DNA of 32,000 bases from Candidatus Saccharimonadota bacterium (GCA_016699935.1 CP064992.1:510001-542000); one strand, 5' to 3'; shown: positions 4,542 through 24,417, numbered from the stretch's first letter. Numbers and translations are program-made. Notes: a model not told the origin generated them from the letters alone.

Positions 4542-4927
4542 TGATTTTGGTAGACGCAAATCATGTCCTGCGATGGTTCTTGCAAGATGTGCCAGCTCAA
4601 GCGGCTCAGGTAGAGCGTTTACTCCAGTCGTCAGCACCAAATTGCTTAGAGCTGACGTCAGTCACTGTTGCCGAGCTGACGTACGTGTTGCGGACAATGG
4701 CATACGACCATGCGCAGATAGCGGGGGTTATGACTGGGTTGTGCTCGTTTGAATCAGTCAGGCAGTTTTCGCCGGTTGATGCTAGGGCGTTGGAGATTTT
4801 TAGCAACACCGTGCTGGATTACGAAGATTGTTTTCTCATAGCCCAAGCCCTGGTGGAAAACGGTGATATTGCTTCATTCGATAAAAAGCTACTCAAAACG
4901 TTTGAAAAGCTACAACTTGCGGAGTAG
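4541..4927 (+). CDS. vapC: PIN-domain toxin (VapC-like ribonuclease)
   Basis: The 128-aa product shows the acidic quartet spacing: D5 (ILVDAN), E in ..TVAELTYVL, D in LDYEDCFL and D in ASFDKKL. It is translationally coupled to the antitoxin. Confidence 0.8.
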   Translation: MILVDANHVLRWFLQDVPAQAAQVERLLQSSAPNCLELTSVTVAELTYVLRTMAYDHAQIAGVMTGLCSFESVRQFSPVDARALEIFSNTVLDYEDCFLIAQALVENGDIASFDKKLLKTFEKLQLAE

Positions 4928-7111
4928 TTGGTGGGCGGCGGAGGGGTTTGGGAGGCGGTAGTTGGCGAGCGTGCGGCCGCGGCCGACTTTGATGGTGTAC
5001 GAGGTGGGTGGAAGTGCGGCGAACATGTCTTCATCGGTGGTATCATCACCGATAGCCAAGATGAAATCGTGGTCGTGGAGGAGCCATTCCTGCGTAATGT
5101 GGCCTTTGCTGACATCAAGATGGTGGACTTCGAGCGCCATGTTACCATCGACAATCCCTAGGTTTTCCGCTTGCGCAATGGGCTTCAGGAGCTTTTTCAG
5201 AATAGTAAGATGTTTCTGGGCATAAAATGGCGATGCATTACGGTAGTGCCAGGCAATGCTCCATTCTTTGCGCTCGACAAAGGCGCCAGGAGTCTGTGCG
5301 GCGTAGTGTTCAAGTAGTTTTGTAACACTTTTTCCCAGGCAAGTGAATGTTGGTTTGTTTTGCGCCACGTTTGTGGTCGTGCAAGCGAATAAAGCCGCCA
5401 TGTTCTGCTACGAGGGTGACAGGAATAGCTCCAAGCCAGTCCATGAGATTTTTTCTATCCCGACCGCTGATGATTGCGACATGGTTGCGCGGGTCTTTCG
5501 CGAGGCGTTTGAGTGCCGCGAGTGTTGCCTGGGACGGCTTGGCGTCTTCTGGGCGCTTTTTGATTGGTTCGAGTGTGCCGTCATAGTCTAGAAGTATCAG
5601 CCGCTTGCGTGCCTGATGATAGTCAGCGATGAGTTCGGCGGATTGTATTTGTCCTAATCCTCTGGTGAGGCGGATTCTTGGGAGTGGAACGGGTGTTTCG
5701 AGTAGATCAATGAAACCAGATGCCCACTTGTCTATGGTGTTGCCACGGAGTATGCGCTGCATTTTGCGTGTGCGGCGGAGAAAGCTACTTGGGGTCATAT
5801 TTAGCGCATCGGTCAGGCCGGTTACGAGACTGCGCAACTTATATGGGTTAACAAGCACTGCGTCTTTTAGTTCTTCGGCGGCGCCGGCGGTTTCACTGAG
5901 GATAAGGATGCCGTCGCTTTTGGGGTGACTGGCCAAATACTCTTTGGCAACGAGGTTCATGCCATCACGAATGGGGGCGATGAATGCGACATCGGCCCGT
6001 TGATACAAGGCGGCATACTGAGCAAAAGGCAGCGGGGAAAAGATGGTTTCGACGGGCTGCCAGCGACTCGTGCCGAACTGGGAGTTAATCTGTTGAACAA
6101 GCTTTTCGACATCAATCCGGAGTTGCTGGTAGGTTGCAACTTCTGTTCGTGACGGCATTGCCTGCATGACCATGACGACCTTGCTGCGAAGGTTTGGATT
6201 TTCGGCGAGAAGCATGCGGTACGCTTTTAGTCGGCCTAGGAGTCCTTTGGATGGGTCAAGGCGGTCGATGGTAAGAATGACTTTTTTGCCGAAGTATTTC
6301 CACTGCAACTTTTTGTGTTCAATATTTACTTCGAGCGAACGGCTCGCATCGGCAAATTTTCGATAATCTATACCTATCGGCAAGTCGGTCACACGGACGA
6401 CGCGTTCAGGTAGTATGACTTTTCGGGGTGCCACGAGCCCAATCTGTAGTTCTCGACAGCTAGCAAGAAAGTTTTCTACGTACGCAGACGTGTGCATGCC
6501 AATGAGGTTTGCCCCGAGGAGGCCTTTTGTGAGCTCGGTAGCATGCTTTGAGTCAAGAAATATTGCGCTCGAGGGGAAAGGGATGTGGAGGAAGAAACCT
6601 ACGTGGCTTTTGGGGCGGGCGACACGGAGCATTTCGGGTAATAGCATGAGCTGGTAGTCGTGTAGCCAAAGTCGGTCGTTCTCACGGCTGAGTGTCAGTG
6701 TAGTATCGGCGTATAGTTTATTTACCTCTTTGTAGGTGCGCCAATTTGTCGCCGAATCTCCGGTGTCGATTTTCATATGGTGAAATAGTGGCCATAGCAC
6801 ACTGTTGCTGTAGCCATTGTAGAAGCCGTCGAGCTGTTTTTGGGTTAGGAATACGGGGTAGCAGTGATTTTTTTAAGTTCGGCTGTGATGTGTTTGCGCT
6901 CAATGTCACTTAGATCGTCGCTGGCGATACCCGGCCAGCCGATCCAGCGATTTGCGCCATTTGTTGCGTATGAAGACAAACCAGTCGCTAGCCCTCCGGC
7001 CGAAGGGTAGTATTCGAGCTTGCCATCCACCTTCTTTACACTCACTGGCAGCCGGTTTGAAACAATCACAACTCTCGGCATGTGAGTATAGTATCTCACA
7101 ACTTCGGCCAC
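4910..7111 (-). CDS. otsA: bifunctional trehalose-6-phosphate synthase / trehalose-phosphatase (OtsA-OtsB fusion), two frame changes
   Basis: The GT20 N-terminus reads MPRVVIVSNRLPV..GGLATGL and ..LWPLFHH..WLHDYQLMLLP. The HAD phosphatase C-terminus reads LILLDYDGTL..IISGR..AIGDDTTDEDMF. The fragments 6845-7111, 5310-6800 and 4910-5401 join across the T7 run at 6868-6874 and a shift near 5320-5330. Confidence 0.85.
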
Positions 7112-7151: not shown

Positions 7152-8080
7152 ATGATTACGACGCTGGCGGGGGAAAATGAGGTGGAGCGGCAGGCGGAGC
7201 TGCGGCGTGTCGTTGCTGTGTTTGAAAAAGAGTATAGCGATATGGGTGTGGAAAGGCTGGATGGTGAAGAGGCGTCATATGAGCGGATGGTAGCAGCGGG
7301 GCAGAGTTTGCCCTTTTTGGTACCCCGAAAGCTTGTTGTACTACGAGCGCCGGGAGCGAACAAAGAGTTCGTGGAGAAGTTCGAGGAGTTCATGTTGTCG
7401 GTTTCTGATACGAACGATGTCATTATCATTGAGCCAAAGTTAGACAAGCGCCTGAGTTACTACAAAACAACTAAAAAACAAACGGATTTCAAAGAGTTTG
7501 CGGTGCTAGATGCCAGTGGATTAGCGCGTTTTGCTACTGACTACGTCAAAGAGCTGGGTGGCAGTATTTCGAGCAATGATGCGCGGTTGCTTGTGGAACG
7601 CGTTGGGACGAATCAGCTTGGCTTGCAGCAGGAGCTCGATAAGTTGCTCGCTAATGAACTAATAATTACGCGGGAGTCCATAGAAAATCTGACCGAACAA
7701 ACACCCCAAAGTAATGTATTTGAGTTACTCGATGCCGCCTTTGCCGGTGACACCAAGCGTACCATGCGCCTCTACGACGAACAGCGGGCGCTGAAGGTCG
7801 AGCCACAGCAGGTTATCGCCATGCTCGCCTGGCAGCTCCATGTACTGGCGGTCGTGAAAACAGCAAAAGAACGGAGCGCCGACGACATCGCGCGGGAGGC
7901 GAAGCTAAACCCGTTTGTAGTTCGGAAGACGCAGAGCCTGGCGCGACACATTAGTCTCACTCGGCTCAAGCAACTTATTACCTCCTCCGTGAGTTTGATG
8001 TACGCACGAAGACCGAGAGCATCATCCCCGACGAAGCCGTCCGCTACTATTTGCTCGAACTTGCATCAGTTCATTCATAA
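7152..8080 (+). CDS. holA: DNA polymerase III delta subunit (HolA), one frame change near 7985
   Basis: The length and pattern fit (..GQSLPFLVPRKLVVLR.., ..NVFELLDAAFAGDTKRTMRLYDE..). After the shift the reading is ..LRELDVRTKTESIIPDEAVRYYLLELASVHS, ending at TAA 8078-8080. The listed 345-aa tail is out of frame. Confidence 0.75.
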
Positions 8081-8114: not shown

Positions 8115-8521
8115 CTATACTTTCGAGGGACTACTTTTCGCTGGAGCAGCTTTTTCACGACTGGTTTCTTGGCCGGAGCGGCCTTTTGACGGCCGGTTTC
8201 TTGACAACTGGTTTTTTAACAGGGGTGGCTTTCGCTTTGTCACTTTTGAGGCCTGCGGGTACACCGGCGGATTTGGCATTGCGTGCGGCCTGAGCTTTCT
8301 TGCGGGCAACTTTGTTTTATGCATGATGCCTTTTTGGCGGCTTTATCGAGCTCGCTTTGGACTTTATCGAGCGCCTTGACAGCTTTCTTTTTGTCGGTAG
8401 CGGTAAGGGCTTTACCGAAAGATTTTACGGCGGCTTTTAGGCTGCGCTTGGTTTTGCTATTACGAATGGTTGCTTTGGTAGCTACTTTTACACGTTTTTT
8501 AGCTGATTTGATGATGGGCAT
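8115..8521 (-). CDS. rpsT: 30S ribosomal protein S20 with a Lys/Ala/Pro-rich C-terminal extension, at least two frame changes
   Basis: The N-terminus MPIIKSAKKRVKVATKATIRNSKTKRSLK.. is canonical S20. After ..DKAAKK the S20 continuation (I)MHKTKLPARK / VARKKAQAARNAK.. and then KPVVKKPAVK..AAPAK.. is found in the other two frames, down to TAG at 8115. Confidence 0.8.
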
Positions 8522-10551: not shown

Positions 10552-10672
10552 ACCTGAGTCTCAAAACCGTCTCCACTTGTACTTGTGTCATTCCCATGAA
10601 GGCGGGAATCCATTTCATATATCTGGATCCCAGCCTTCGCTGGGATGACATCGTGGGGGTTTGAGATTCAGG
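10552..10672. mobile_element. 121-bp MITE-like element, copy 1 (double-hairpin core, imperfect terminal inverted repeats, 7-bp TSD)
   Basis: The terminal repeats are cctgagtctcaaaac and gtttgagattcagg. The core hairpins are gtcattcccatgaaggcgggaatcc (10587-10611) and ggatcccagccttcgctgggatgac (10625-10649). TCTTTAA flanks both sides at 10545-10551 and 10673-10679. The element is about 90% identical to copy 2. Confidence 0.8.
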
Positions 10673-10805: not shown

Positions 10806-11489
10806 ATGCAGGGAATAATCCTTATTGACAAGCCGACTGGCTGGACGAGCTTTGACGTGGTTAATTATGTGCGGAAGATGGTAGCGCAGGCTGAAGGAAA
10901 AAAGCCAAAAAACTGCAAAGTTGGCCACACTGGTACGCTTGATCCTCTGGCGACGGGCCTGTTAGTGATTTTGGTTGGCAGAGACTACACACGTCGAGCC
11001 GCTGAACTGAGCAAGCACGATAAGACCTATGAGGTCTCGATAAAACTAGGAGAAGTATCAACCACTGGCGATAATGAAGGGGAGAAGACCTCTGTTAATT
11101 CTCGCGTCCCAAGTGAAAAAGAGGTTGCAGAAGCTCTTCGGAAATTTACTGGACAAATCATGCAAACGCCGCCAGCTTATTCGGCAATAAAAATTAACGG
11201 GCAGAAGTCATACGATTTGGCGCGGAAGGGCAAAGTGGTAAAACTCGAGCCACGCCCAGTGACTATCTATGCAATACGAAACATTGAATATGCATATCCA
11301 CACGTGAGCTTCACGTGCGATGTTAGCAGCGGCACGTATATTCGCTCACTCGCAGAAGATGTTGGCGCGCAACTTACCACGGGCGCGTATATGTCTAGTT
11401 TGCGACGAACGAGAGTTGGGCAATACGACCTTGCGCAAGCGGTGACAGTAACAACAGAAAACCTCGTTGCGCAATTGTTCGAAATCTGA
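10806..11489 (+). CDS. truB: tRNA pseudouridine(55) synthase TruB
   Basis: The sequence GIILIDKPTGWTSFDVV..KVGHTGTLDPLATGLLVILVG contains the catalytic Asp motif. The ..GTYIRSLAEDVG motif is also present. Confidence 0.9.
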   Translation: MQGIILIDKPTGWTSFDVVNYVRKMVAQAEGKKPKNCKVGHTGTLDPLATGLLVILVGRDYTRRAAELSKHDKTYEVSIKLGEVSTTGDNEGEKTSVNSRVPSEKEVAEALRKFTGQIMQTPPAYSAIKINGQKSYDLARKGKVVKLEPRPVTIYAIRNIEYAYPHVSFTCDVSSGTYIRSLAEDVGAQLTTGAYMSSLRRTRVGQYDLAQAVTVTTENLVAQLFEI

Positions 11490-11498: not shown

Positions 11499-11528
11499 TT
11501 GACATGATAGGCAATAGCGTTTTATGAT
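11499..11528 (+). promoter_or_regulatory. sigma70-type promoter of the tail-fibre-like operon (TTGACA-18-TATGAT)
   Basis: TTGACA lies at 11499-11504 and TATGAT at 11523-11528. It sits 10 nt after the truB stop. A leader of about 50 nt with an AGAGGGA Shine-Dalgarno precedes the ATG at 11587. Confidence 0.55.
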
Positions 11529-11586
11529 ACAGGTAACGTATTACGCGTGTAGGTACATAATTTAAAAGCAAAAGAGGGACGAGCAT

Positions 11587-12876
11587 ATGGCATCACGATT
11601 ACCAACACCAGGCGGAGACGATGGTACTTGGGGGGCAATCCTCAACGATTATCTTGCGCAAGCTCATAAAACCGACGGCACACTAAAAGACGATGTTGTC
11701 ACTGCGGCAGCATTAGCTCCAGGTGCTGTGACGGCTACAGGGGTTGCTGACGCAACTATTTCCGAGGCTAAGCTAGACGGGGCATTGCAGGCAAAGGTGA
11801 ATGGTTTGGGTGGTGGCGGTTCTCTAACCTTGTCTGGTGACGTCACTGGGCTAAGTACAGCAACAGTAGTCGCCAAGGTCAATGGAGTAACTGTATCTGG
11901 TACCCCAGCAGCTGGACAAGTTCTAAAAGCTACCAGTGCCTCAGCAGCAACCTGGCAAGCAGATGACACTGGCAGTGGTGCGGTCACGAGTGTTGCCGGT
12001 AGGACTGGTGCAGTTACACTTACGAAGACAGATGTTGGACTAGGTAATGTTGATAATACATCAGATGCGGCTAAGCCGGTTTCGACATTGGTTCAAACAG
12101 CCCTCAATTCAAAAGCAGACGATAGTGCAGCAGTGCACAACACTGGCGCTGAAACAGTTGCTGGTGTTAAGACCTTCTCAAGCTCTCCTGTTGTGCCAAC
12201 TCCTACGACGAACACTCAAGCGGCCAATAAATCATACGTTGACGGCGTAGCCGGTTCCGGTGCGCCAGATGCGTCAGCATCTACAAAGGGCATCGTACAG
12301 CTTACTGGTGATCTTGGTGGTAGCGCTACGGCGCCAACTGTACCGGGACTTGCTGGCAAGGCAAATACCAGCCATACCCACGCAGCAGCAGACATTACAT
12401 CTGGCACAATCGCGTCGGCTCGACTAGGTTCTGGCACAGCCAATGGTACAACGTACCTGCGCGGTGACGGCACCTGGGCAGCCGTATCAGGCGGCGTAGG
12501 TGGTGTCGCGGTTACTGGCACCCCGAGCGCTGGGCAAGTCCTAAAAGCGACGAGTCCAACCGATGCTACTTGGGCTGCTGATGCTACAGGAAGCGGGTAC
12601 ACATGGAATTTCCGAAGCATTTCAGCTGATGATACTGCAGCAGATGGCGACTACATGCTTGTTGATACTAGTGGATCTGGCGTTACGGTTACATTACCTG
12701 CACCTGTGAGTGGTGCTGCGGTACGTGTTAAACGAATGACTGCCGGTTCAAATAGTGTGCAAATAGTGCCCCAAAGTGGTCTAATTGACGGATCGGGTGT
12801 TGGATCTCATGTTCTCGGCAACCAATGGGATGCTATGGAATTTGTTAGCAATGGTACGAACTGGTACAGAGGATAA
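11587..12876 (+). CDS. phage tail-fibre / minor-tail-like repeat protein (429 aa)
   Basis: The motifs are LPTPGGDDGTWGAILNDYL (N-terminus), SVAGRTGAVTLTKTDVGLGNVDNTSDAAKPVS, KGIVQLTGDLGG, HTHAAADITSGTIASARLG and YLRGDGTWA. All of these are typical of phage fibre or minor-tail proteins. It is Gly/Thr/Ala-rich and has no signal peptide. The C-terminal 70 aa are paralogous to the C-terminus of the 603-aa ORF. Confidence 0.75.
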   Translation: MASRLPTPGGDDGTWGAILNDYLAQAHKTDGTLKDDVVTAAALAPGAVTATGVADATISEAKLDGALQAKVNGLGGGGSLTLSGDVTGLSTATVVAKVNGVTVSGTPAAGQVLKATSASAATWQADDTGSGAVTSVAGRTGAVTLTKTDVGLGNVDNTSDAAKPVSTLVQTALNSKADDSAAVHNTGAETVAGVKTFSSSPVVPTPTTNTQAANKSYVDGVAGSGAPDASASTKGIVQLTGDLGGSATAPTVPGLAGKANTSHTHAAADITSGTIASARLGSGTANGTTYLRGDGTWAAVSGGVGGVAVTGTPSAGQVLKATSPTDATWAADATGSGYTWNFRSISADDTAADGDYMLVDTSGSGVTVTLPAPVSGAAVRVKRMTAGSNSVQIVPQSGLIDGSGVGSHVLGNQWDAMEFVSNGTNWYRG

Positions 12877-12890
12877 AGGGGATATAGGAC

Positions 12891-13385
12891 ATGCCATTTA
12901 CATCAAACGGAGCCAACCTATACAACGCACAAGACGTATATATCACTAACGTCGCCCAAGACGAAATATTAAAATATAACGGTGGCACAGCCAAGTGGAA
13001 CAATATAAATCCTGTTGGTTTTGCGGCACTAGCAAACAAGGGCGGCCTAGAGAGCTCGTCAGCAACTTCCGGTTCAAATATTGCTGTTGATCTGAATAGC
13101 GGCAACGTGCACCATCGGACACTGACAGGTGCTGGGGCAACAGCTACTTTTACTATTAGTAATGTTCCGGCGGTGACATCAACAGCTGTGTCATTTACGC
13201 TTTATGTCGTTCAGGGAGCTACACTTAAAACTGTAAACTGGAATTCAAGCGTGACCGTTAAGTGGGCAGGCGGTACCGCACCGACATTGACACAAACGTC
13301 GGGCGCAACCGATGTGTTTGTTTTCGAAAAGATTGATGGTATTTCGGGGTGGTTTGGATCACTCGTGGGAAGTAATTTCTCATAG
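12891..13385 (+). CDS. small tail-associated-like protein (164 aa) sharing the N-terminal module of the next ORF
   Basis: MPFTSNGANLYNAQDVYITNVAQDEILKYNGGTAKWNN aligns with MPFTGSGTGIQNANDIYFTLLAQNHVLRYNGTTAKWNN in the next ORF. The C-terminal beta-rich part ..VNWNSSVTVKWAGGTAPTLTQTSGATDVFVFEKIDGISGWFG resembles a small domain common in phage proteins. Confidence 0.6.
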   Translation: MPFTSNGANLYNAQDVYITNVAQDEILKYNGGTAKWNNINPVGFAALANKGGLESSSATSGSNIAVDLNSGNVHHRTLTGAGATATFTISNVPAVTSTAVSFTLYVVQGATLKTVNWNSSVTVKWAGGTAPTLTQTSGATDVFVFEKIDGISGWFGSLVGSNFS

Positions 13386-13441
13386 ACAACTCATAGTAAT
13401 TAATCATTTTTTAAGCATCATCACGAGCAGAAGGAAGGTCC

Positions 13442-15253
13442 ATGCCATTTACGGGATCTGGAACGGGCATACAAAATGCAAATGATATTTACTTCACTTT
13501 GCTTGCACAAAATCATGTTCTTCGTTATAACGGAACAACCGCTAAATGGAATAACGTCTCGCTTGTTGTTGGTACTGCAGATCTTGCCAACGACTCAGTT
13601 ACTGAACCGAAACTAGCGATATCTAATAGCCCGACTTTAAACCAAGTGCTTCGCTGGAATGGCACCGATCTGGAGTGGGTGACTATTTCTTATGAACCAA
13701 CTATCTCTACCGGCACCATTGCGCAATACTGGCGTGGTGATAAATCCTGGCAAACACTCGATAAAACCGTTGTCGGACTTGCAAATGTTGACAATACTTC
13801 AGATAGTACCAAAAATGCTGCTACAGCCACTCTTACGAACAAGACAATATCTGGTGCAACAAACACACTGTCCAACATCCCACAATCAGCAGTTACCAGT
13901 CTGACGACCGATTTAGCTGCAAAAGTCCCTCTTTCTACTGCAACGACAAAAGGGGATATCCTAGTATCAACCGGCGCTGGTGCTCTTTCTCGATTGGGTG
14001 TTGGAGCGAATAATTTTGTACTTACAGCAGATAGCGCACAAGCAACAGGGGTAAAATGGGCTACAGTTTCTGGGGCATTTGAGCCAACCATCACCGCTGG
14101 CACGATTGCGCAATACTGGAGGGGTGATAAATCCTGGCAAACACTCGATAAAACCGCTGTTGGGCTTGCTAATGCCGATAATACCGCTGACATCTCTAAA
14201 AACGTTCTAAGTGCGACAAAACTTACTACGGCACGAACAATAAATGGAGTTAGTTTTGATGGCTCTGCCAACATTACGGTAGCCGATAACGCAAAACTAG
14301 CATTATCTACTGTGACAACTAAAGGTGACATTGTTGCGGCTACTGGGTCTTCGACTTTGACTAGACTTGGTGTTGGCACTGACGGACAAGTTCTTACTGC
14401 GGATAGTTTACAGGCATCTGGAATCAAATGGTCAACACCTGCAACTGCGCCTGTTACTAGTGTCGCTGGTAGAACGGGAATAGTATCGCTTACCAAGTCT
14501 GACGTTGGTCTTGGTAATGTTGACAATACTGCAGATGCAAGTAAACCTATTTCTACTGCAACTCAAACAGCGCTTGATCTTAAAGTTGATGAGACTATAT
14601 CTGTAAGTGGCGGTACTTCGCTTACAGGCGGAGGTGTTTTAACTGCAAATCGCACACTGACACTGCTAAACGATTCTGCAACGCCCGGAAATAGCATGTA
14701 CTACGGTACTAATGGCACAGGTACCAAAGGCTTTTACGCCATCCCAACAGGTGATCCTACTATGGGTGGTGATCTAAGCGGAACAGCTTCAAATGCCCAG
14801 CTTGGTACGGGAGTTGTTGGTACGACTGAGCTAGCGGCGACAGGAGTGACTACGGCAAAGATTGCCGATAGTGCTATTACAGAGCCAAAATTAGCTATGA
14901 ATAACAGCCCAGCCGCTGGAAAAGTCATCGGCTGGGATGGTTCGAGTATGACCTGGACAGTAGGTTATGCTTATACACGAGTAAATGTTACAGGAACCCC
15001 CGGGACTTACACAGCAAACATATTTGATTATATCTTTGCTGATGCGACATCTGGCGGTATAACAATCACGTTACCAGCCCCTCAACTCAATTCCTTTGTG
15101 CGAATAAAGAGGATTTCGAGCGGTTCAAACGGTGTCCAGGTAGTTGCGCCAAATGGTTCATTTATAGACGGTAGCGGCGTCGGCTCCGACGTACTCGGTA
15201 GTCAATACGATAGTCGCGAGTACTGGAGCGATGGTACGAACTGGTATCGCTAG
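13442..15253 (+). CDS. phage tail-fibre-like repeat protein (603 aa) with an internal duplication
   Basis: The module EPTI(S/T)xGTIAQYWRGDKSWQTLDKT(V/A)VGLAN(V/A)DNT(S/A)D occurs twice, with a 34-nt identical DNA core at about 13735 and 14123. It also has TTKGDI(L/V)..LxRLGVG..VLTADS twice, SVAGRTGIVSLTKSDVGLGNVDNTADASKPIS, and a C-terminal domain shared with the 429-aa ORF. Confidence 0.75.
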   Translation: MPFTGSGTGIQNANDIYFTLLAQNHVLRYNGTTAKWNNVSLVVGTADLANDSVTEPKLAISNSPTLNQVLRWNGTDLEWVTISYEPTISTGTIAQYWRGDKSWQTLDKTVVGLANVDNTSDSTKNAATATLTNKTISGATNTLSNIPQSAVTSLTTDLAAKVPLSTATTKGDILVSTGAGALSRLGVGANNFVLTADSAQATGVKWATVSGAFEPTITAGTIAQYWRGDKSWQTLDKTAVGLANADNTADISKNVLSATKLTTARTINGVSFDGSANITVADNAKLALSTVTTKGDIVAATGSSTLTRLGVGTDGQVLTADSLQASGIKWSTPATAPVTSVAGRTGIVSLTKSDVGLGNVDNTADASKPISTATQTALDLKVDETISVSGGTSLTGGGVLTANRTLTLLNDSATPGNSMYYGTNGTGTKGFYAIPTGDPTMGGDLSGTASNAQLGTGVVGTTELAATGVTTAKIADSAITEPKLAMNNSPAAGKVIGWDGSSMTWTVGYAYTRVNVTGTPGTYTANIFDYIFADATSGGITITLPAPQLNSFVRIKRISSGSNGVQVVAPNGSFIDGSGVGSDVLGSQYDSREYWSDGTNWYR

Positions 15254-15271
15254 GAAGAATAGGAGGTTCTA

Positions 15272-16444
15272 GTGAGTAGATATGCCAGCAGAGTACGACG
15301 GGCTATTCAGCAAACTAGCACCAGTGAGGGAACGATTTTTGGTTTCAACTCGTCGCAAACAGACCCAGATCGTGTTTTAAAAATGAACTGGTGGGGGCGC
15401 CAACCTTGCGGGCGGCAATACTACAGTACTTCGTCGCTTCCGTCTAACGGTAACGGTTTTTTGCCTGGTGGGCGCGAGTACAAGTGCGCCGGACTTGATG
15501 TTGCTGGCCTAGTTTCATCACGTCGAGTCAACTCTTGTTTCAAATTTGACCCGGGAACAATCACGACGACGAGCTCGCCAAAAGCGGTTGAGGTGTACGA
15601 TTATGTTCGTTCGATTCCAGCTGGCTGGCGCATTTATCTGACTTATCATGAGTACAACCCTGAAATCGTCGATGGAACATACACAGCGGCAGATTTTCGT
15701 AGGGCTTTTCAGATATTGGCGGCTCGGGCGTGGGATGCAACCCAGTTAAACAAGCAAGAGGGCAAAGGCGAAGGTATATTCGTCATAAATATTGCAGGTT
15801 CTGGCCTGGCCGGTAGCTCATGGGATGATTCGTATGCTCCAGCTGCGAGCACGATGCCGCCCAACTGCCAGTTTTGGTCTGACGCGTATGATAACCCTAG
15901 GGGTGTGCCGAGTAATTACAAAGGCTATGGCACTACATACGGCAATATTGGTCCGGTTATCCTTGATGATGTCTATGATACAGCCGAGCGTCTTGGTTAT
16001 CTCGATAATAGCGATGGCGGCACGCGAGGCTGGGGTATTGGTGAGTTTTGTTCACCGCGCCGCGTCGCACCAGCCCTCGCGACCCTCAATACTACGTTAG
16101 GCTGGGGCCCGCTTTCACCCAACGATATTTCTGGCGCTGGTCAAGCTCAGGCCATCACCAATTACGCGAACTACTGCTTGGGCACACCAGCTCGACCAAT
16201 TCCGGCAAAAGTCGTGCTGCTGTGGACTATAAGCTCGGGCAATAACTGGAATCAAGCCTTTACATCTGCCGGCACTCCTGAGTGGGACGCGTGGGTCGAT
16301 GGATCGAATGTGCTACAGACAACTAAACTAGACGATCTAGTGGGTTTGACACCACACCCAACGCTCCACCAGGGCTGGCCGATTACCGTTGATGAAACTT
16401 TACCTGTCGCTGCCTACCAAACATTTATTGATATGAGTGCCTAG
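15272..16444 (+). CDS. putative clan GH-A (GH26/GH5-like) glycoside hydrolase
   Basis: The gene has a GTG start 5 nt after an AGGAGG Shine-Dalgarno. ..IYLTYHEYNPE fits a candidate acid/base (GH26-style HE.N) and ..RGWGIGEFCS fits a candidate nucleophile (GEF), with about 130 aa between them. It is the last gene of the operon. The assignment is by motif only. Confidence 0.4.
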   Translation: MSRYASRVRRAIQQTSTSEGTIFGFNSSQTDPDRVLKMNWWGRQPCGRQYYSTSSLPSNGNGFLPGGREYKCAGLDVAGLVSSRRVNSCFKFDPGTITTTSSPKAVEVYDYVRSIPAGWRIYLTYHEYNPEIVDGTYTAADFRRAFQILAARAWDATQLNKQEGKGEGIFVINIAGSGLAGSSWDDSYAPAASTMPPNCQFWSDAYDNPRGVPSNYKGYGTTYGNIGPVILDDVYDTAERLGYLDNSDGGTRGWGIGEFCSPRRVAPALATLNTTLGWGPLSPNDISGAGQAQAITNYANYCLGTPARPIPAKVVLLWTISSGNNWNQAFTSAGTPEWDAWVDGSNVLQTTKLDDLVGLTPHPTLHQGWPITVDETLPVAAYQTFIDMSA

Positions 16445-16543: not shown

Positions 16544-16572
16544 TTGCAATAGAGGTGGAGATCTGATATACT
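16544..16572 (+). promoter_or_regulatory. rpsO promoter (TTGCAA-17-TATACT)
   Basis: TTGCAA lies at 16544-16549 and TATACT at 16567-16572. A leader of about 75 nt contains a GGAAGGA Shine-Dalgarno. Confidence 0.5.
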
Positions 16573-17158: not shown

Positions 17159-19307
17159 ATGAGCCAAATAACTACTAAAACAATTAACCCTTATGGCAAA
17201 GACCTTGTGGTTGTCGAAACAGAGTTTTGCGGTCGCAAACTGACACTAGAAGTAAACCGCGTTGGATTCCGTACTACGGCCAGTGTACTGGCACGCTACG
17301 GCGACACTGTGGTGCTTGGTACTGCCATGATGGGCAAACCAATCAAGGTATGGACTATTTCCCGCTTAGCATCGACTACGAAGAAAGTTTTATGCTGCAG
17401 GTAAGATCAGTGGCAGCCGTTTTATCAAGCGCGAAGGTCGTCCTAGCGACGATGCCATCCTTATCGGCCGACTTATCGACCGACCAATTCGTCCGCTTTT
17501 CCCAAAGGGTTATCGAAACGAAGTGCAGGGTGTTGCTAGTGTCCTCAGTATGGATCCGGCATTTCGCCCAGATATGATTGCCATGATCGCCATGAGCACA
17601 GCTCTAATGCTCACGGGTGCACCGTTTGACGGTCCAGTTGCCGGCGTCCGAGTCGGCATAAACGAAAAAGGCGATTACCAAGCATTCATGACTGCCGAAG
17701 AGCTAAATGCCAGCAAACTTGATCTAGTCGTCGCCGCTCGTGAAGGTGGTGTTATGATGGTCGAAGCCGGCGCCAATGAAGCTACCGAAGAAGAAGTCGT
17801 GGCAGCCTTGAAGTTTGCCGAGGAAGCAATTAAGCCCGCATTGGCAGCGCAAACCGAACTTGTCAAAAGGTCGGGGTGGAAGCCACCGAATATGAATTGG
17901 TGCTCCCAGACGAAAAATCCAAAAAGCCGTCGATGCTTGGGTTGAGGGAAAACTAGGTGAAGACCTACGAGCACCTTACCCAGAGCGAAACGAATTAGTC
18001 GTGACACTTCGCCAGCAAATGCACGATGCCTTTGCCGAAGAAATTGGGGCTGACGATTATGGCGTGTTACGTAGTGAATACGATGAGGCTTTTCAGATGG
18101 CGTTACACAAAGATGTGCGTAGAGGAATCGTCGAAGACGGCGTGCGACCAGATGGCCGCAAGCTCGACGAAATTCGTACGTTGAGCTCAGAAGTTGGTCT
18201 GCTGCCTCGTGCTCATGGCTCGAGCCTATTTACCAGGGGTATGACGCAGGGAATGAATATAGTTACCCTGGCGCCACTCAGTTATTCTCAAATGGTGGAC
18301 ACCATGGAGCGCAACGAAGAACGCCGCTACATGCACCACTACAATGCTCCCGGCTACACTGTCGGTGAAGTACGTCGACTGGGTTCACCTGGACGCCGCG
18401 AAATTGGCCATGGCTACTTGGCAGAGCGGGCACTGAGTGCCGTGCTGCCAGATGAGTCAGTCTTCCCCTACGCCATTCGCTCGGTTACCGAGATTATGAG
18501 TCAAAACGGATCAACTAGTATGGCAGCGACATGTTCTCGAGTTGTCTAGCTCTAATGGATGCTGGCGTACCACTCAAAGCGCCCGTTTCGGGTATTGCCA
18601 TGGGACTTATGGTGGACGGCGACAAGACTTACATATTGAGTGATATCGCTGACGCCGAAGATTTTGCCGGTGATATGGACTTCAAAGTAACCGGTACCAC
18701 CGTAGGCATCACAGCCTTGCAGATGGATATGAAAGTACACGGTTTGCCAGTAACAGTGCTAGCGGAAGCTTTAGCCCAAGGCAAAGACGGCCGAGCACAC
18801 ATATTGCGCCATATGCTAGAAACAATGCCAGAACCACGGGCAGAACTAAGCCCGTATGCCCCTCGGGTTGAAAGCATACAGATTAACCCTGACAAGATTC
18901 GCGAAATTATCGGTAAGGGTGGCGAGACTATTCAGAAAATTACCGGTGAAACTGGCACAGAAATCGACATCAAAGATGATGGTACGGTGATGATCGCTAG
19001 CCCAGATGGAGATAGCATACAGCGCGCCAAAGACTGGATTCTTTCTATCGTGGAAGATCCAGAAGTGGGCAAAATATATGTCGATAAGCCAGTAGTTTCT
19101 GTCCTGGACTTCGGTGCGTTCGTGCAGATTATGCCCGGCAAAGACGGTCTGGTGCATGTCAGCGAGATGAGCGAGGAACGGGTCAATAAACCGAGTGACG
19201 TTGTCAAAGAAGGCGACCTGGTCACCGTAAAACTCGTCGCCATAGACGACCGCGGTCGCCTGCAACTCAGCATGAAAGCCGCGCAACGGGAACTTGAAAA
19301 GAAATAG
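17159..19307 (+). CDS. pnp: polynucleotide phosphorylase (PNPase), at least four frame changes
   Basis: An AAAGGAGG Shine-Dalgarno precedes the start. Five ORF fragments read continuously: MSQITTKTINPYG.., ..MDYFPLSIDYEE.., ..FIKREGRPSDDAILIGRLIDRPIRPLFP.., ..DGRKLDEIR..HGSSLFTRG.., ..MDAGVPLKAPVSGIAMGL... KH (IIGKGGETIQKI) and S1 (GKIYVDKPVVSVLDFGAFVQI) domains follow. Confidence 0.95.
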
Positions 19308-19312: not shown

Positions 19313-19786
19313 ATTTAGCAGGTAACAGAAAGACATTGAGCAGAAATTTGGCATATGGCAGGTAGCAGAGATTCCGCTAGCGACGACAGTCAAAAGAAAC
19401 GAGCACTTCTCGAACGTAGGATGTTGGTTTTGCGGCCGATGTGATACGAAAGCTCGAGAAAGCACCCCGTATACCTAATCGCTTAGTAGATCAACTTACG
19501 GGTTCGTCATCGAGTATTGGCGCAAATTACGCCGAAGCATGTAATGGCGTGTCTCGTATGGATTTTCGCAACAAAATCTATATAGCTAAAAAGGAAGCAG
19601 CGGAAACCCGTTTTTGGTTGGATTTGTGTATGGAAGTACAGCCAAAGGATGATGAATGGGTGCGTTTACGTCAAGAAGCCCATGAACTGCTCATAATATT
19701 ACAGGCAATAGTTAACGCATAAAAGCGGGTCTGCGAAATGAAAAATGCCAAATTTCTGCTAAATGCTCAATGTCTTTCTGCTAAAT
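19313..19786. mobile_element. inverted-repeat-bounded cassette carrying the four-helix-bundle gene
   Basis: The left arm atttagcag..aaagacattgagc..agaaatttggcat (19313-19354) is mirrored by the right arm atgccaaatttctgc..gctcaatgtcttt..ctgctaaat (19745-19786). The cassette fills the pnp-udg gap almost exactly, with 5 nt and 12 nt to spare. Confidence 0.6.
19355..19722 (+). CDS. four-helix-bundle protein (23S rRNA intervening-sequence protein family), one frame change near 19415-19440
   Basis: The family signature is ..QLTGSSSSIGANYAEACNGVSRMDFRNKIYIAKKEAAETRFWLDL... The N-terminal ..KKRALLER / ..GFAADVIRKL lies in an adjacent frame starting from the ATG at 19355. Confidence 0.75.
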
Positions 19787-20604: not shown

Positions 20605-22590
20605 ATGGATAATAAACCAGGAATGAAGAATGGAGAACGAAGAATGCAAAAACCACAAAATAGCCGAGGGGGTGGGAATCAGCGCCGGTCGGGGCAGAAG
20701 AATAGTCCACAGCAGAACGGTAGCTCACAACCGTCAGCAAATGGGAAACCGGCCGTGAGCCGTGGTGCTGCTGTGCGGGCGCAAAAGCGAACGCAGATGG
20801 ATGCTCAGCGCGTGGCAAACCAGTGGATGCCAGCGCAGGTTGACGAAAACCGACGAGCCAACTTCATAGACGATACACCACGTCTAAAGATTATCGGCCT
20901 CGGTGGTATGGACGGCGGTGGTAGCAAGAACATGATGCTTGTGGAGTATGTGAACGATGCGGTTGTCATTGACGCCGGAAACGACCTCAGTGTCGACCTG
21001 CCAGGCATAAACTACGGTATTGCCGACACGGCATACATGGAAAACATCCGGCACAAGCTTCGTGCCTATATCATCACGCACGGACACCTCGACCATATTG
21101 GTGGCTTGCCGCACATTGTACCGAAGTTCCCGGCGCCAGTGTATGGCAGCAAATTTACCATTGGCCGCGTCCATGAGATTTTTGAGAATTTTGGTTTGCC
21201 TATGCCCGAAGGTTTTGAACTCAAAACAGTTGAGATGAACGAAGATACACACGAACGGCTCAAAATTGGCGAATTCTACGTCGAGCTAGTGCGGGTGACG
21301 CACTCGATCCCTGGGAGCACCATTGTGGTACTCGATACACCAGTCGGGCGTATCATTAACACTGGTGACTTCCGGTTCGATCCTAACCCGCTAGACCATG
21401 AACGTACCGATATGGAGCGGCTGATTGAGCTTGGCAATGAAGGCGTACTGGCGCTTCTGAGCGAAAGCACTACTGTGGAGCGTCTGGGACGAACGCCTTC
21501 TGAAAGTACTATCGAAAAAAGCTATGTCGACATAATGCAGCAAGCGCCTGGGCGTATCTTCGTTGGCGTGTTCAGCACGAACATGAACCGTATACAGATG
21601 ATTGTGAATGCTGCTGTCCACCACGGGCGCAAAGTCGCCATAGATGGTCGCAGCATGGTCAGTACCCTCGAGATGGCAGTGCGCCACGGGTTTATGAAGA
21701 TTCCTAAGGGCACATTCATACCGATTGCCCAGGTTGGCACCATGACAGATGGCCAAGTCGTTGTGATTTGTACCGGAAGCCAGGGCGAGCCATCTTCGGC
21801 ACTCCAGCGTATGGCCAACGGCGAACATCGCCATATTAAACTCAAAGAGCAGGACACGGTTATTCTTTCGAGTACACCAATCCCAGAGAGCGGCAACGAC
21901 GCGCTTATTGGTCAGATGGTCGATGACCTCGTAAAAAACCACGTACATGTGTTTGAACACCGCAATCACGACCTCGATAAGGTTGGCCCACTGCACGTAT
22001 CTGGTCATGCTAGTCAGGACGAATACGCCGAAATGATTCAGATGACAAAACCTAAGTTTTTCATCCCAATTTACGGCGCTTTCCGTGTCAAACAGCGTCA
22101 TATAGACCTCGCTATAGAGCAGGGTATACCACGCGCAAACTGTCTGAATGCACTGAACGGAGAAGTAATTGCCCTCACACCAGATAAGATGGAAATCATA
22201 GGTGAAGTACCCTCCGGTACTATCCTTGTCGACCAAACGGGAGCTATCGTGAGTAATGTGGTGGTGAAGGACCGCGTACTTCTGGCAGAGGAAGGCCTCG
22301 TCGCTGTTGTACTCACGGTCGACAAAAAGACAGGAAACTTGCTCACGAGCCCCGACATCATCAGTCGTGGATTCATATACATGCGTGAGCAAGAGGAAAT
22401 TATGAATGGTCTCAGGGGCGAAGTGCGCCGGGCTGTCACGCAGCGTTACAAGCGCATAGACATAGACCGCTTTAAGGCAGAGTTAAAAGACCACATTACC
22501 CACTACTTGTTTGAGCAGACCGGCCGTAGTCCCATAGTCATACCGGTGATAAACATCATCGGTGGCAAGAGCGAAGATACTGCAGCGTAA
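20605..22590 (+). CDS. rnj: ribonuclease J with an N-terminal basic extension of about 85 aa
   Basis: The metallo-beta-lactamase motif is YIITHGHLDHIGG. The beta-CASP and C-terminal regions are present, and the 661-aa ORF is intact. The first 85 aa or so are Gly/Gln/Arg/Asn-rich. Confidence 0.9.
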   Translation: MDNKPGMKNGERRMQKPQNSRGGGNQRRSGQKNSPQQNGSSQPSANGKPAVSRGAAVRAQKRTQMDAQRVANQWMPAQVDENRRANFIDDTPRLKIIGLGGMDGGGSKNMMLVEYVNDAVVIDAGNDLSVDLPGINYGIADTAYMENIRHKLRAYIITHGHLDHIGGLPHIVPKFPAPVYGSKFTIGRVHEIFENFGLPMPEGFELKTVEMNEDTHERLKIGEFYVELVRVTHSIPGSTIVVLDTPVGRIINTGDFRFDPNPLDHERTDMERLIELGNEGVLALLSESTTVERLGRTPSESTIEKSYVDIMQQAPGRIFVGVFSTNMNRIQMIVNAAVHHGRKVAIDGRSMVSTLEMAVRHGFMKIPKGTFIPIAQVGTMTDGQVVVICTGSQGEPSSALQRMANGEHRHIKLKEQDTVILSSTPIPESGNDALIGQMVDDLVKNHVHVFEHRNHDLDKVGPLHVSGHASQDEYAEMIQMTKPKFFIPIYGAFRVKQRHIDLAIEQGIPRANCLNALNGEVIALTPDKMEIIGEVPSGTILVDQTGAIVSNVVVKDRVLLAEEGLVAVVLTVDKKTGNLLTSPDIISRGFIYMREQEEIMNGLRGEVRRAVTQRYKRIDIDRFKAELKDHITHYLFEQTGRSPIVIPVINIIGGKSEDTAA

Positions 22591-22721
22591 AAAACTGCTA
22601 TAGGGTAAACAACAAGCCCGCCGAGTTGCAAAAAACACAGAAGGAAATCGCTGCCGAACAGCAAGCTCGTTTTCAGGCTATGCGCGAACGCCTCCTCAAC
22701 CAAGACCCCCGCGTTGATTAA
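22575..22721 (+). repeat. direct repeat, left copy (147 bp), spanning the last 16 nt of rnj and its 3' flank
   Basis: It is identical to 24251-24396 except for one extra C in a C-run (gaccccc versus gacccc). This was verified by eye along its whole length. Confidence 0.95.
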
Positions 22722-22897: not shown

Positions 22898-23509
22898 ATG
22901 CAATGTGAAAAACTAGGCGACGGCCATATTACAAATGGCGATTTTTCTACGGCTCCTCCTACTGCAGGGGTGAGTCGGTTATCGCAGACTTTTGAGAGAC
23001 TGTGTGAGTCAGAAATCACGAATGACGCATTACTACCAAAAGAGGTCATCGCAACGGGCAGCAATATAGTACGTGATGGGCAAATCGGCGTTATTAAAAG
23101 TAATACGGGTTTTGAAGTATCATTTAAGTTGACGGACGAGGCATATGCTGATTTAGAGAGTCGTGTAGATTTGCCGCCGAGCGATGGAACGATCCGGCGT
23201 AAACAGCCGTATAAGTTTCTAGTGGCCTACGACAGTGAGGAGCAAAAAGTTATAAGCAGCGAAAGAGTTGTAGAGACGGGAACTGCTGAGAGGTATACGA
23301 TTAATGGTATTACGGCAGATATCTCCCATTATGATCCAAACTGGCAGGCACTCAACGGCTTAGTTACCATTATGGTTCCCAATGAAGCTGCTGGCGCTGA
23401 AGCGGGGGAATTAGCTAGTAATGTAGATGGAATCTGTCGTACACTTTTCGGGTGTAGCGATGTATTTCAACCTCCTGACGAAGCCGCAGAAGCATTGCAA
23501 AAAAACTAG
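22898..23509 (+). CDS. hypothetical protein (203 aa), possibly the N-terminal half of one 456-aa cassette protein
   Basis: I recognise no family. The stop lies right after the A7 run at 23499-23505. With one more A the frame reads ..AEALQKKLAYLKHHRLEESPETAYVPELVRQE.. straight into the next ORF. Confidence 0.5.
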   Translation: MQCEKLGDGHITNGDFSTAPPTAGVSRLSQTFERLCESEITNDALLPKEVIATGSNIVRDGQIGVIKSNTGFEVSFKLTDEAYADLESRVDLPPSDGTIRRKQPYKFLVAYDSEEQKVISSERVVETGTAERYTINGITADISHYDPNWQALNGLVTIMVPNEAAGAEAGELASNVDGICRTLFGCSDVFQPPDEAAEALQKN

Positions 23510-23556: not shown

Positions 23557-24266
23557 GTGCCAGAGCTTGTTCGTCAAGAGGTATTTCCGGGTCATTTGGC
23601 TTATGTTGACCCAAACAAGCACAAGAAATATGAAGAGGAATTTGGCCAAATACTCATATTTCATAACGTTGCGCTCGAAGAAGATATCGTAAGCATCGTG
23701 AAGAATGGCCTACTTGCAGCCCGCGAAAGGACAGAACGTGGCATATTAGCGGGTGGCTTATCAGTATTGAGTGATTTGAAGGCAGGTGGTGCCGATAGCG
23801 CATACGTGCGCATGGTGACCTCAGAGAGCATAAAAATGGAAAAACAACTGATGATTATGGAGGAATGGCGGTTTTGTTAAGGCCATCCCTTCTAGATCGA
23901 ACGGATTGGTACGCGTACCCTAATGATAGCTATGGATCGACAACGCCAGAGGATATAGCCACTAGCTTACCACCGGCAGGACTCTTTCGTCACATTAACG
24001 AATGCGGCTTAGATAATGTTGAGCAATATAATGAATCAATGTTTGCTACCGGCATCTCCCCAAATGAAATTGCTGGCATCGTTGTTAGTGATGAAGAATC
24101 CCAGCGGCGTATAATAACAAGATTGAAAGCCAGCGGAGTTACAGTAGTGTATGGTATTGAACTTGAAGATTTTGTGCAAGTAGCCACAACCTATACGCAA
24201 ATGAACGCCATTTCTCATGGAATAAACGGCGTCCGACAGCAGAAATTAGTAGATACTGCAGCGTAA
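23557..24266 (+). CDS. putative ADP-ribosyltransferase/Tpt1-fold-like protein, one frame change at the A5 run 23840-23844
   Basis: Fragments 23557-23880 and 23865-24266 join as ..SESIKMEKTTDDYGGMAVLLRPS... The motif order resembles H-Y/R-E ART-fold enzymes: ILIFHNVALEEDIVSIVKNGLL, then AYVRMV, then VLLRPSLLDRTDWYAYPNDSYGS, then QYNESMFATGISPNEIAGIVV. The last five codons (DTAA-stop) lie inside the right direct repeat. Confidence 0.35.
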
Positions 24267-24396: not shown

Positions 24397-24417
24397 CTTT
24401 CCCTAAGCAGATAGGCA

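Follow-up and report, generated by a model that had tools for sequence, protein, structure and literature searches.

A conserved operon of phage fiber-like proteins and a divergent glycosidase-like enzyme between truB and rpsO of Saccharimonadales

Phage receptor-binding proteins domesticated by bacteria are already known from tailocins and contractile injection systems, and open reading frames (ORFs) resembling tail fibers are common in genomes. In the branched receptor-binding complexes of phages, tailspikes and fibers dock onto each other through N-terminal adaptors (CBA120 TSP1–4, G7C). The attachment to hosts of bacteria from the Candidate Phyla Radiation (CPR, Patescibacteria) has so far been linked to type IV pili and to a small number of glycan-binding proteins of a generic kind (PMC10633639, PMC12206443). 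Cultivated Saccharibacteria live on Actinobacteria and need envelope proteins that bind or degrade glycans; S. epibionticum requires polysaccharide-binding or -degrading envelope proteins as well as a type IV secretion system that possibly exports proteins (PMC10633639). Cloneable candidates for the recognition of particular hosts by ultrasmall CPR bacteria are provided by the locus described here: a four-gene module at positions 11499–16444 of a 32,000-nucleotide stretch, hereafter the window, of the genome of Candidatus Saccharimonadota bacterium (GCA_016699935.1, CP064992.1:510001-542000). ORF1, ORF2, and ORF3 of the module resemble phage tail fibers, and ORF4 resembles a glycoside hydrolase (GH). 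No description of phage tail-fiber-like proteins or of a GH family like that of ORF4 was found in the searchable literature on the host interactions of Saccharibacteria.

The module is characterized by the homology and fold of its proteins, by synteny, promoter conservation, purifying selection, and horizontal mobility, and by the absence of phage structural genes nearby. The interpretation that we favor, tentatively and with somewhat less than even confidence, is that it is an actinophage-derived set of proteins kept for action on the surface of the actinobacterial host, where it would bind and cut glycans. Receptor-binding and glycan-cutting genes from phages of Actinobacteria would have become fixed in the chromosome; a sub-clade of Saccharimonadales would maintain the set and transcribe it from its own conserved sigma-70 promoter; and the products would recognize and locally cut the cell-envelope polysaccharide of an actinobacterial host, as at the tip of a phage tail. 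The formation of trimeric fibers, their exposure at the cell surface through an export route, a glycan as the substrate, and the host as the target are all supposed by this interpretation.

A conserved module in a variable chromosomal slot

The module and the borders of the slot in which it lies are made up of the following features.

10806..11489, + strand: truB, left edge of the slot; up to 81% identity to Saccharimonadales metagenome-assembled genomes (MAGs), orthologues with Pfam TruB_N
11499..11528, + strand: module promoter TTGACA-18-TATGAT, sigma-70-type; 11 of 12 consensus positions, starting 10 nucleotides past the truB stop
11529..11586, + strand: conserved 5' leader with the Shine-Dalgarno site AAGAGGG; long invariant runs TAACGT, CGTGTAG, and TAAAAGCAAAA
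11587..12876, + strand: ORF1, long fiber, 429 residues (IPL68_03430 = QQS19263.1); minor tail and tail fiber matches in PHROGs
12891..13385, + strand: ORF2, short fiber-tip protein, 164 residues (IPL68_03435 = QQS19070.1); tail fiber matches in PHROGs, AlphaFold2 (AF2) model
13442..15253, + strand: ORF3, long fiber, 603 residues; PHROGs matches at <=3e-44, matches in phage records
15272..16444, + strand: ORF4, clan GH-A-like (beta/alpha)8 enzyme, 390 residues, GTG start (IPL68_03445 = QQS19071.1); AF2 model and Foldseek matches
16544..16572, + strand: rpsO's own promoter TTGCAA-17-TATACT with TG; also upstream of rpsO in L010 (which is free of the insert), L059, L011, and L033
16654..16920, + strand: rpsO, right edge of the slot; 88–91% identical to relatives

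Loci and contigs compared with the window carry numbers with the prefix L. The four genes, all annotated as hypothetical (IPL68_03430–03445), are separated by 14, 56, and 18 nucleotides and are each preceded by a purine-rich Shine-Dalgarno site (AAGAGGG, AAAGGGGA, GAAGGAAGG, and TAGGAGG). The original prediction, made from the sequence of the window alone, had placed these same-strand ORFs of 429, 164, 603, and 390 residues, their individual Shine-Dalgarno sites, and the promoter behind truB exactly where they are found. It had also considered that the organism may belong to the CPR, and the identity of truB to that of Saccharimonadales MAGs, several of the closest of which come from activated sludge or membrane bioreactors, supports its assignment to the CPR order Saccharimonadales.

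As a class, promoter-like sites in the region occur at the rate expected by chance (9 found vs 8.9 expected), and the case for the module promoter is therefore built on its conservation across loci. Its hexamers are invariant wherever they could be aligned: the -10 hexamer in six of six loci and the -35 hexamer in five, since the aligned stretch of L074 begins downstream of the -35 position. The promoter and the leader of approximately 60 nucleotides are nearly invariant across the six loci, while the truB proteins of those genomes are 65–80% identical to that of the window. Only a weak 5-base-pair hairpin, lacking covariation support, is predicted in the leader RNA. The interval from ORF4 to rpsO has no predicted intrinsic terminator, so that read-through into rpsO is possible; the rpsO promoter is retained alike in genomes that bear the module and in those that do not.

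The module had been thought to split a conserved truB-rpsO block, which is not a special feature of this locus. Among 56 loci holding both genes, truB and rpsO are adjacent (a gap of less than 120 base pairs) in only 10, and the remaining gaps contain 0.4–5 kb of unrelated cargo, including AbrB/PIN toxin–antitoxin pairs, an ABC-F ATPase, a polysaccharide deacetylase, putative lipoproteins or membrane proteins, and orphans. The interval is a general variable slot of Saccharimonadales, for which it documents a site of recombination. In the comparison of this interval across relatives, proposed earlier as a check, the gap proved to be variable in general, and at least six further loci carry the same module at this position. 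It was considered that other cargo of the slot could be diverged fibers; this was rejected, as none of 44 gap proteins has a PHROGs tail match. In three gaps (L012, L016, and L033) there is a conserved pair consisting of an AbrB/SpoVT-like protein of 89–116 residues, named solely from its N-terminal sequence motif, and a 125-residue protein that is probably a PIN-domain match; the pair looks like a toxin–antitoxin module.

All four genes of the module are present in the slot of L059 and L240, whose ORF1 sequences are identical and which therefore represent the same population. L011 and L074 contain ORF1–3 only, and L029 a single short ORF3-like gene. In L075, from the complete genome CP064993, ORF1–3 are accompanied by about ten more genes, including two further fibers with an N-terminus of the MPFT type described below. 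The module is thus found in the window and in at least six other loci from independent assemblies (five other genomes, because L240 duplicates L059), with the same gene order and promoter. A quick neighbor-joining tree built from DHH, truB, and rpsO allowed five bearers to be placed (the window and loci L059, L011, L074, and L029); all of them fall into one sub-clade with non-bearers interspersed, and the window is the sister of L059. The module is not flanked by direct repeats.

The N-terminal module (N-module) of ORF1 is 79–90% identical in four orthologues, with a rate of nonsynonymous substitution (dN) of 0.084, a synonymous rate (dS) of 2.1, and a ratio (omega) of approximately 0.04. For ORF2, the C-terminal domain (C-domain) of ORF3, and ORF4, dN is 0.11–0.42 and dS is saturated, because of which the ratio cannot be computed for most pairs; dN values far below saturated dS indicate purifying selection on the module genes. 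The N-modules are much better conserved than the remainder of each protein. The middle parts of the fibers vary by gain and loss of entire repeat units, and the C-domain of ORF1 is only 37% identical in the sister genome L059, as opposed to 85% for its N-module; this divergence of the tip domain is the mosaic pattern usual for receptor-binding proteins.

An ORF4 homologue also occurs by itself, on the other side of truB, upstream of the gene, in L001 (10001-11176). It is 87% identical to ORF4 of L059 (6721-7893), although the truB and rpsO sequences of the two genomes are only 51% and 49% identical, which shows horizontal transfer between distant Saccharibacteria. A 577-residue gene beside ORF4 in L001 was examined as a possible fiber and rejected; it is a DHH/NrnA-like housekeeping gene. 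The GC content at third codon positions (GC3) of ORF1–3 in the window is 0.34–0.41, vs 0.46–0.59 in the neighbors; its use as a sign of recent transfer was dropped, since the anomaly is not reproduced in orthologous loci.

Because at least six further loci have the module at this position and its genes are under purifying selection, it is domesticated, as the original prediction had proposed, and neither a prophage fragment nor a collapsed assembly join. That it is a neutral, decaying remnant of a prophage tail or an artefact of assembly would agree with phage-like content in a variable slot, with the GC3 of ORF1–3 below that of the neighbors in this genome, and with the many indel errors of the assembly. 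However, the genes are intact in at least seven loci from six genomes with the same order and promoter, dN is far below dS, neither flanking direct repeats nor an integrase are present, and GC3 is not deviant in the orthologous loci. This explanation is largely refuted by conservation and selection, and we regard it as very improbable.

The fiber-like proteins, the enzyme, and their phage relatives

ORF1–3 are modular proteins rich in glycine, threonine, serine, and alanine, with no cysteine. To judge from their matches, they are phage-type fiber proteins: tail-fiber and minor-tail families of PHROGs match them at 1e-15 to 3e-44, which shows the motifs pointed out in the original prediction to be genuine. 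The values for ORF1 (minor tail and tail fiber) are 1e-14 to 1e-21, and those for ORF2 (tail fiber) 1e-15 and 9e-13. Pfam matches of ORF1 to DUF5907, BppL_N, and PTR are all sub-threshold, those to DUF5907 and BppL_N lying just under the gathering cut-offs. The similarity to tail fibers extends over the repeats; a location inside a phage tail module was found neither in the window nor in the orthologous loci. Searches of PDB sequences with ORF1, ORF3, and the ORF4 profile returned only spurious or insignificant matches (designed 'Pizza' propellers, FtbO with an E-value of 0.47, and alphaRep).

ORF1 begins with an N-module (residues 1–80; MxRLPTPGGDDGxWGxxLNxxL, starting MASRLPTPGGDDGTWGAILNDYL), continues with the repeats SVAGRTG..GLGNVDNTSD, HTHAAADITSG, and YLRGDGTW, and ends in a tip domain of approximately 110 residues (320–429). 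A tip domain of the same type forms the C-terminus of ORF3 (residues 455–603), the N-module of which (residues 1–84, beginning MPFTGSGTGIQNANDIYF...KWNN) differs from that of ORF1 and is common with ORF2. ORF3 contains an internal duplication of 129 residues (DNA 13693-13815 vs 14080-14202, 80% identical), and its orthologues have one repeat unit fewer. ORF2 consists of the MPFT..KWNN N-module (residues 1–50) and a distinct beta-sandwich C-domain of approximately 110 residues. In the proposed mechanism, ORF1 and ORF3 would be long fibers, presumably homotrimeric, with a docking N-module, a length set by the number of repeats, and a C-terminal tip, whereas ORF2 would be a minimal fiber or a short alternative tip that places the docking module of ORF3 on another tip domain.

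The AF2 model of ORF2 is a beta-sandwich with a predicted local distance difference test score (pLDDT) of 81.8. It has no significant fold match in the PDB, and its similarity to the N-terminal region of CBA120 TSP4 (7rfo) is weak and not significant (E 8.6e-3). By contrast, it has 227 viral matches in BFVD at E<=0.001, the best of which reach E ~1e-11 and a template modeling (TM) score of ~0.6 and are mostly far longer than ORF2; the top 50 are all from Caudovirales, and several are named fiber or tail fiber proteins. Homologues of ORF2 bear PF26209 (Phage_phiTE_241_C).

The central repeats of ORF3 (residues 85–385) match 661 GenBank phage records, ~82% of which are phages of Actinobacteria (Mycobacterium 232, Gordonia 196, Arthrobacter 95, Microbacterium 13, and Rhodococcus 8), as well as hundreds of IMG/VR contigs; most of the 25 listed records are annotated 'minor tail protein'. 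The ORF1-type N-module occurs in 18 IMG/VR contigs and in four Streptomyces phage records, including BRock, LuckySocke, and Alone3. In one contig (L275, GC 0.70), it heads a protein of 1069 residues, the second large gene past a gene for 2027 residues that is weakly tape-measure-like. In another (L272, GC 0.67), a protein of approximately 123 residues joins the ORF1-type N-module to a C-domain of the ORF1/ORF3 type and is directly followed by a GH5 mannanase-like enzyme (PDB 9m20, E 9.5e-12); the large ORF that comes after it may encode a terminase. L272 is a phage prototype of the order 'fiber then clan GH-A enzyme'. The MPFT-type N-module of ORF2 and ORF3 has a single weak match among the viral sequences of IMG/VR. 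The idea that the terminal modules are confined to Saccharibacteria was therefore rejected by an alignment-based viral scan for the ORF1-type N-module and C-domain; it stands for the MPFT type. In BRock and LuckySocke (L282 and L283), whose genomes are 112–115 kb long, the genes with the ORF1-type N-module, gp186 (with collagen repeats) and gp41 (hypothetical), respectively, lie in a tRNA-rich region outside the tail operon.

Fiber-like genes with the ORF1-type N-module also stand alone in other housekeeping surroundings: between rpsG and fusA (L076 10001-11815); between murB and folD, beside a type IV pilin-like gene (L253 9469-10747); and between parA and parB, where small MPFT-like proteins and a protein with a PKD domain are encoded as well (L263 5821-11314).

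The AF2 model of ORF4 (pLDDT 88.8) has eight strands alternating with helices and forms a (beta/alpha)8 barrel. A Foldseek search with the model, which the original prediction had suggested, was run against the PDB and returned 28 matches at E<=1e-3, every one of which is a clan GH-A hydrolase (families GH1, 2, 5/26, 17, 51, 53, 72, 79, and 86; E ~1e-5, TM ~0.4, ~10% identity). In an alignment of 18 sequences, H126-E127-Y128-N129 (HEYN, codons 15647-15658) and E258 in GEF (codon 16043-16045) are invariant. In the model, Glu127 comes after the strand 120–124 and Glu258 lies within the strand 253–259; they are the putative acid/base and the putative nucleophile, respectively, and their positions fit clan GH-A. 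The His-Glu pair before the acid/base is one that we take to resemble GH26. The earlier reading of the HE.N and GEF motifs as those of a clan GH-A hydrolase is supported by the invariant residues, the barrel model, and structural matches that, down to E 1e-3, are exclusively GH-A.

ORF4 has no match in Pfam (E<=1), PHROGs, NCBIfam, or PADLOC, and its family profile has none among PDB sequences; it does not belong to the established family profiles of GH26, GH5, or GH53, and hhalign gives a probability of 0.3% for its alignment with the GH5-like phage enzyme. We read ORF4 as divergent and as belonging to clan GH-A by its fold, yet outside every described GH family, and it is proposed to be a glycosidase of the retaining clan GH-A type, which would cut the receptor or an envelope polysaccharide. 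The family is small, with 20 proteins among 5.8 billion clusters and, in an exhaustive profile search, 51 cluster representatives among 1.84 billion; remote relatives are fused to GH6, CBM96, fn3, PTR plus fn3, or GDSL esterase domains. The short, basic N-terminal tag of ORF4, MSRYASRVRRAIQ (15272-15331), conforms to a pattern, MS[RSI][FT]xRR[LI]QR, that also heads four otherwise unrelated proteins of the L075 island (190, 146, 303, and 298 residues) and may be a docking or export signal. Three further proteins of this island (L075 11340-17371, CP064993) have transmembrane or signal-like N-termini.

No ORF4 relative was found in 50,697 GenBank phage records, and IMG/VR contains one contig with such a gene. 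In three siphovirus contigs (L007, L008, and L009), relatives of ORF4 are encoded behind the genes for tape-measure, Dit, Sipho_Gp37 Tal, and two minor tail proteins. Relatives of the L009 Tal occur solely in phages of Streptomyces, Microbacterium, Curtobacterium, Micrococcus, and Arthrobacter. The phage copies of ORF4 begin with a peptide of approximately 25 residues and a poly-proline linker, both of which are missing from the copies of Saccharibacteria. Cellular homologues from other phyla have N-termini that appear Tat-like, lipoprotein-like, or transmembrane when read by eye rather than with a signal predictor. One of them, which carries a lipoprotein signal, lies behind the genes of four enzymes secreted by the type IX route (Amidase_3, SpoIID, Peptidase_M23, and DUF5696) in L004 (2318-11188); this stretch looks like a secreted, cell-wall-attacking gene cluster, and we take the contig to be from Bacteroidota because of the type IX secretion sorting domains.

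In an alternative reading, the module would act on its own cell, for instance by remodeling the exopolysaccharide or cell wall, by forming a fibrous coat, or by promoting aggregation or biofilm. Besides the cellular homologues of ORF4 among peptidoglycan and cell-wall hydrolases in the Bacteroidota contig, the patchy distribution of a dispensable module and the requirement of S. epibionticum for its own exopolysaccharide genes (PMC10633639) would agree with this role. However, every component is nearest to receptor-binding or tail-tip genes of phages, mostly phages of Actinobacteria, and the mosaic tip of ORF1 is typical of proteins that track a foreign receptor. A function at the cell's own surface is thus improbable.

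The 32-kb window has no gene for a capsid, terminase, portal, tape-measure, integrase, or lysis protein, as the original prediction had stated; the other genes are housekeeping genes. The window lacks the structural core, tRNA genes, and att-like repeats of a prophage, tailocin, or contractile injection system. In the five orthologous loci with enough flanking sequence, no sheath, tube, tape-measure, baseplate, or lysis gene occurs in the 10 kb to the left and right of the module (L240, the sixth locus, spans just 4.4 kb), and the extra genes of the L075 island have no PHROGs structural match. The absence of signal peptides claimed earlier was also confirmed: all four proteins lack a hydrophobic N-terminus, and no signal peptide, transmembrane segment, lipobox, or wall anchor was found in ORF1–4, the Kyte-Doolittle maximum over 19 residues being <=1.33.

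Proteins that are assembled in the cytoplasm likewise lack signal peptides, and the module may encode accessory parts of a larger particle, such as a tailocin, a gene-transfer-agent-like particle, or a prophage encoded elsewhere. The N-modules would dock on the baseplate or hub of this particle, and lysis would be the means of release, which would account for the lack of export signals. The N-modules, which are far more conserved than the rest of the proteins, the presence of the ORF1-type N-module in the tail-tip region of phage contigs, and the extension of the CP064993 island by about ten genes including two MPFT-type fibers fit this possibility. It is nevertheless unlikely, given the lack of particle genes in the 32 kb and in the orthologous flanks, the lack of structural matches among the additional L075 genes, the small size of Saccharibacterial genomes (~1.2 Mb), and the lone fiber-like genes in the rpsG-fusA, murB-folD, and parA-parB intervals.

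Saccharibacteria share phages with their actinobacterial hosts: seven out of nine phages putatively assigned to Saccharibacteria are co-targeted by Actinobacteria (PMC10746230), and TM7x is bound by a prophage of its host Schaalia (PMC13578794). Such sharing makes a route for gene acquisition plausible. It also bears on the alternative that the module is directed at phages, as an assembly poison, as a decoy for superinfection exclusion, or as proteins supplied to a phage or satellite, whose host range they would alter. In addition to the binding of phages of actinobacterial hosts to Saccharibacteria, this role would be in keeping with the N-modules common to genuine phage proteins, the cytoplasmic location that the proteins would have, and the AbrB/PIN pairs in the same slot of relatives, as in variable or defense islands. 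However, ORF1–4 have no match among 5027 PADLOC defense models, and the window is devoid of the integrase, packaging, and replication genes that a satellite would carry. It is not obvious what a glycosidase would do in a cytoplasmic decoy, and conserved tip domains under purifying selection are needless for a mere assembly poison. We therefore consider a role against phages quite improbable, and a reading as a known defense system is not supported. A further candidate, that the fibers are targets of a diversity-generating retroelement, is likewise not supported: there is no reverse transcriptase among the scanned ORFs of the window, the DNA of the tip domains has no template-like repeat there, and only a lone Avd-like ORF (19441-19722) is present.

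Surrounding genes and assembly quality

The remaining genes of the window have housekeeping functions (HAD hydrolase, fpg, otsAB, holA, rpsT, DHH/NrnA-like, truB, rpsO, pnp, UDG, RNase J, ftsK, efp, and tlyA), and scans for tRNAs and Rfam families over the 32 kb were both empty. Approximately 12 frameshifts interrupt the neighbors of the module: pnp has four of them, otsAB has two, and holA, rpsT, rnj, ftsK, and fpg have one each. The affected genes have the following positions.

1160-2070: fpg, frameshifted housekeeping gene
4913-7081: otsAB, frameshifted housekeeping genes
7152-8068: holA, frameshifted housekeeping gene
8230-8521: rpsT, frameshifted housekeeping gene
17159-19304: pnp, frameshifted housekeeping gene
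20635-22718: rnj, frameshifted housekeeping gene
24890-27117: ftsK, frameshifted housekeeping gene

The frameshifts are mostly beside homopolymer runs and are probably errors of long-read assembly rather than marks of pseudogenes; the genome series is Nanopore-based. Homopolymers of at least five bases occur at 1.85 per kb in the module, vs ~5.2 per kb in the flanks. The contrast between intact module genes and broken neighbors, to which the original prediction had drawn attention, is real as to the neighbors, but the intactness of the module is largely what the scarcity of homopolymers would lead one to expect, and it is no evidence of selection.

Several other elements lie in the window. A 93-residue ORF between pnp and UDG (19441-19722) belongs to PF05635 (23S rRNA-intervening-sequence protein, Avd-like four-helix bundle) and is missing at the same place in L074. 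The 3' end of the RNase J gene is duplicated as a perfect direct repeat of 135 nucleotides (22575-22709 and 24251-24385), which encloses an insert of 1.5 kb containing three orphan ORFs (22898-23509, 23557-23880, and 23865-24266). The duplication is also present in L010 and L033, and the end of rnj looks like another hot spot of insertion, one at which the target is duplicated. Two copies, 93% identical, of a 120-nucleotide element resembling a miniature inverted-repeat transposable element are located just upstream of truB (10552-10671) and at 24417-24536. The element has terminal inverted repeats (CCTGAGTCTCAAAAC ... GTTTTGAGAyyCAGG), internal hairpins, no Rfam match, and relatives in L033, L030, L026, and L021. 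Finally, two 96-nucleotide copies with 97% identity (31775-31870 and 31879-31974), 104 nucleotides apart, are hairpin-rich by eye.

Host-directed function and comparison with known systems

Attachment to the host by the module is plausible, with circumstantial support from the affinity of all its parts to actinophages. The proposed mechanism is in line with the envelope proteins and the type IV secretion system that S. epibionticum requires (PMC10633639). Several points weigh against a host-directed function. The module is held by a minority of the clade and is missing from L010, the nearest relative by truB, which implies that it is dispensable. The actinophage bias of the matches is in part a bias of the databases, as SEA-PHAGES over-samples actinophages, and is only suggestive. 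The absence of an export signal or wall anchor from ORF1–4 means that exposure at the surface would need another route. Lastly, the occurrence of the ORF1-type N-module in phage tail-tip proteins suggests docking on a hub, and a hub is not encoded at the locus.

A broader and more speculative proposal, which we consider doubtful, is that some CPR episymbionts have made the receptor-binding tips of phages of their hosts into a tail-less kit for recognizing hosts and breaching their envelopes, composed of interchangeable fibers, tips, and depolymerases. The kit would be labeled with three N-terminal tags (MxRLPTPGGDDGxWG, MPFTGxGTGIQNA..KWNN, and MSRFxRRLQR) for docking of the parts on each other or for export independent of Sec, by type IV secretion or a pilus; its parts would be exchanged by natural transformation into variable slots, and it would help to set the host range. 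If so, the module would help to determine which Actinobacteria a Saccharibacterium parasitizes.

The locus documents gene flow from the tail tips of actinophages to Saccharibacteria and between distant Saccharibacteria. The tip domains of the fibers are candidates for host binding, and the substrate of ORF4 could identify the receptor glycan of the host. A role directed at phages, or as part of a hidden particle, would also be new biology for CPR bacteria.

Among described proteins, the fibers are closest to the minor tail proteins and fibers of actinophages (DUF5907/PTR), such as Arthrobacter phage Qui gp37, Mycobacterium and Gordonia minor tail proteins, and Streptomyces phage BRock gp186. 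They share with them the repeats VxSVxGxTGxVxL, GLGNVDNTSDxxKP, and YxRGDxxW (36–58% identity in the listed records), the ORF1-type N-module, and the order of N-module, repeats, and C-terminal tip. Unlike actinophage fibers, the module is situated in a housekeeping region of a bacterial chromosome without tape-measure, Dit, Tal, or baseplate genes, it has a conserved promoter of a bacterial type, and its MPFT-type N-module is nearly absent from IMG/VR. ORF4 resembles the clan GH-A depolymerases of phages (GH5, GH26, and GH53-like) in the predicted barrel, which has one glutamate just past strand 4 and a second within strand 7, in having homologues in siphovirus tail modules, and in a gene order analogous to the 'fiber then GH5 enzyme' of L272. 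However, it has neither Pfam GH membership nor a sequence relative in the PDB, it belongs to a tiny family, and the N-terminal adaptor and poly-proline linker seen in phage copies are missing from those of Saccharibacteria.

The use of a few N-terminal tags over different distal domains, as in ORF2 and ORF3 or in ORF4 and the four L075 proteins, is reminiscent of branched receptor-binding complexes; the module differs from these in having no baseplate, and mutual docking of its proteins is a hypothesis. As in tailocins (R- and F-type pyocins) and contractile injection systems, receptor-binding proteins of phage origin are encoded in a bacterial chromosome for the use of the cell. However, those systems retain a tube, a sheath or tape-measure, a baseplate, and lysis genes, none of which is present at the module loci. 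With the known host machinery of Saccharibacteria, that is, type IV pili, the type IV secretion system, and glycan-binding adhesins (PMC10633639, PMC12206443), the module shares the proposed class of targets, host glycans, whereas its proteins have no recognizable export signal. What sets the locus apart from these systems is the combination of a conserved, selected, and tail-less operon of fibers and a glycosidase-like enzyme in a CPR episymbiont, all parts of which point to phages of the host phylum, with a previously undescribed and extremely rare GH-A-like family and a few N-terminal tags shared over unrelated distal domains.

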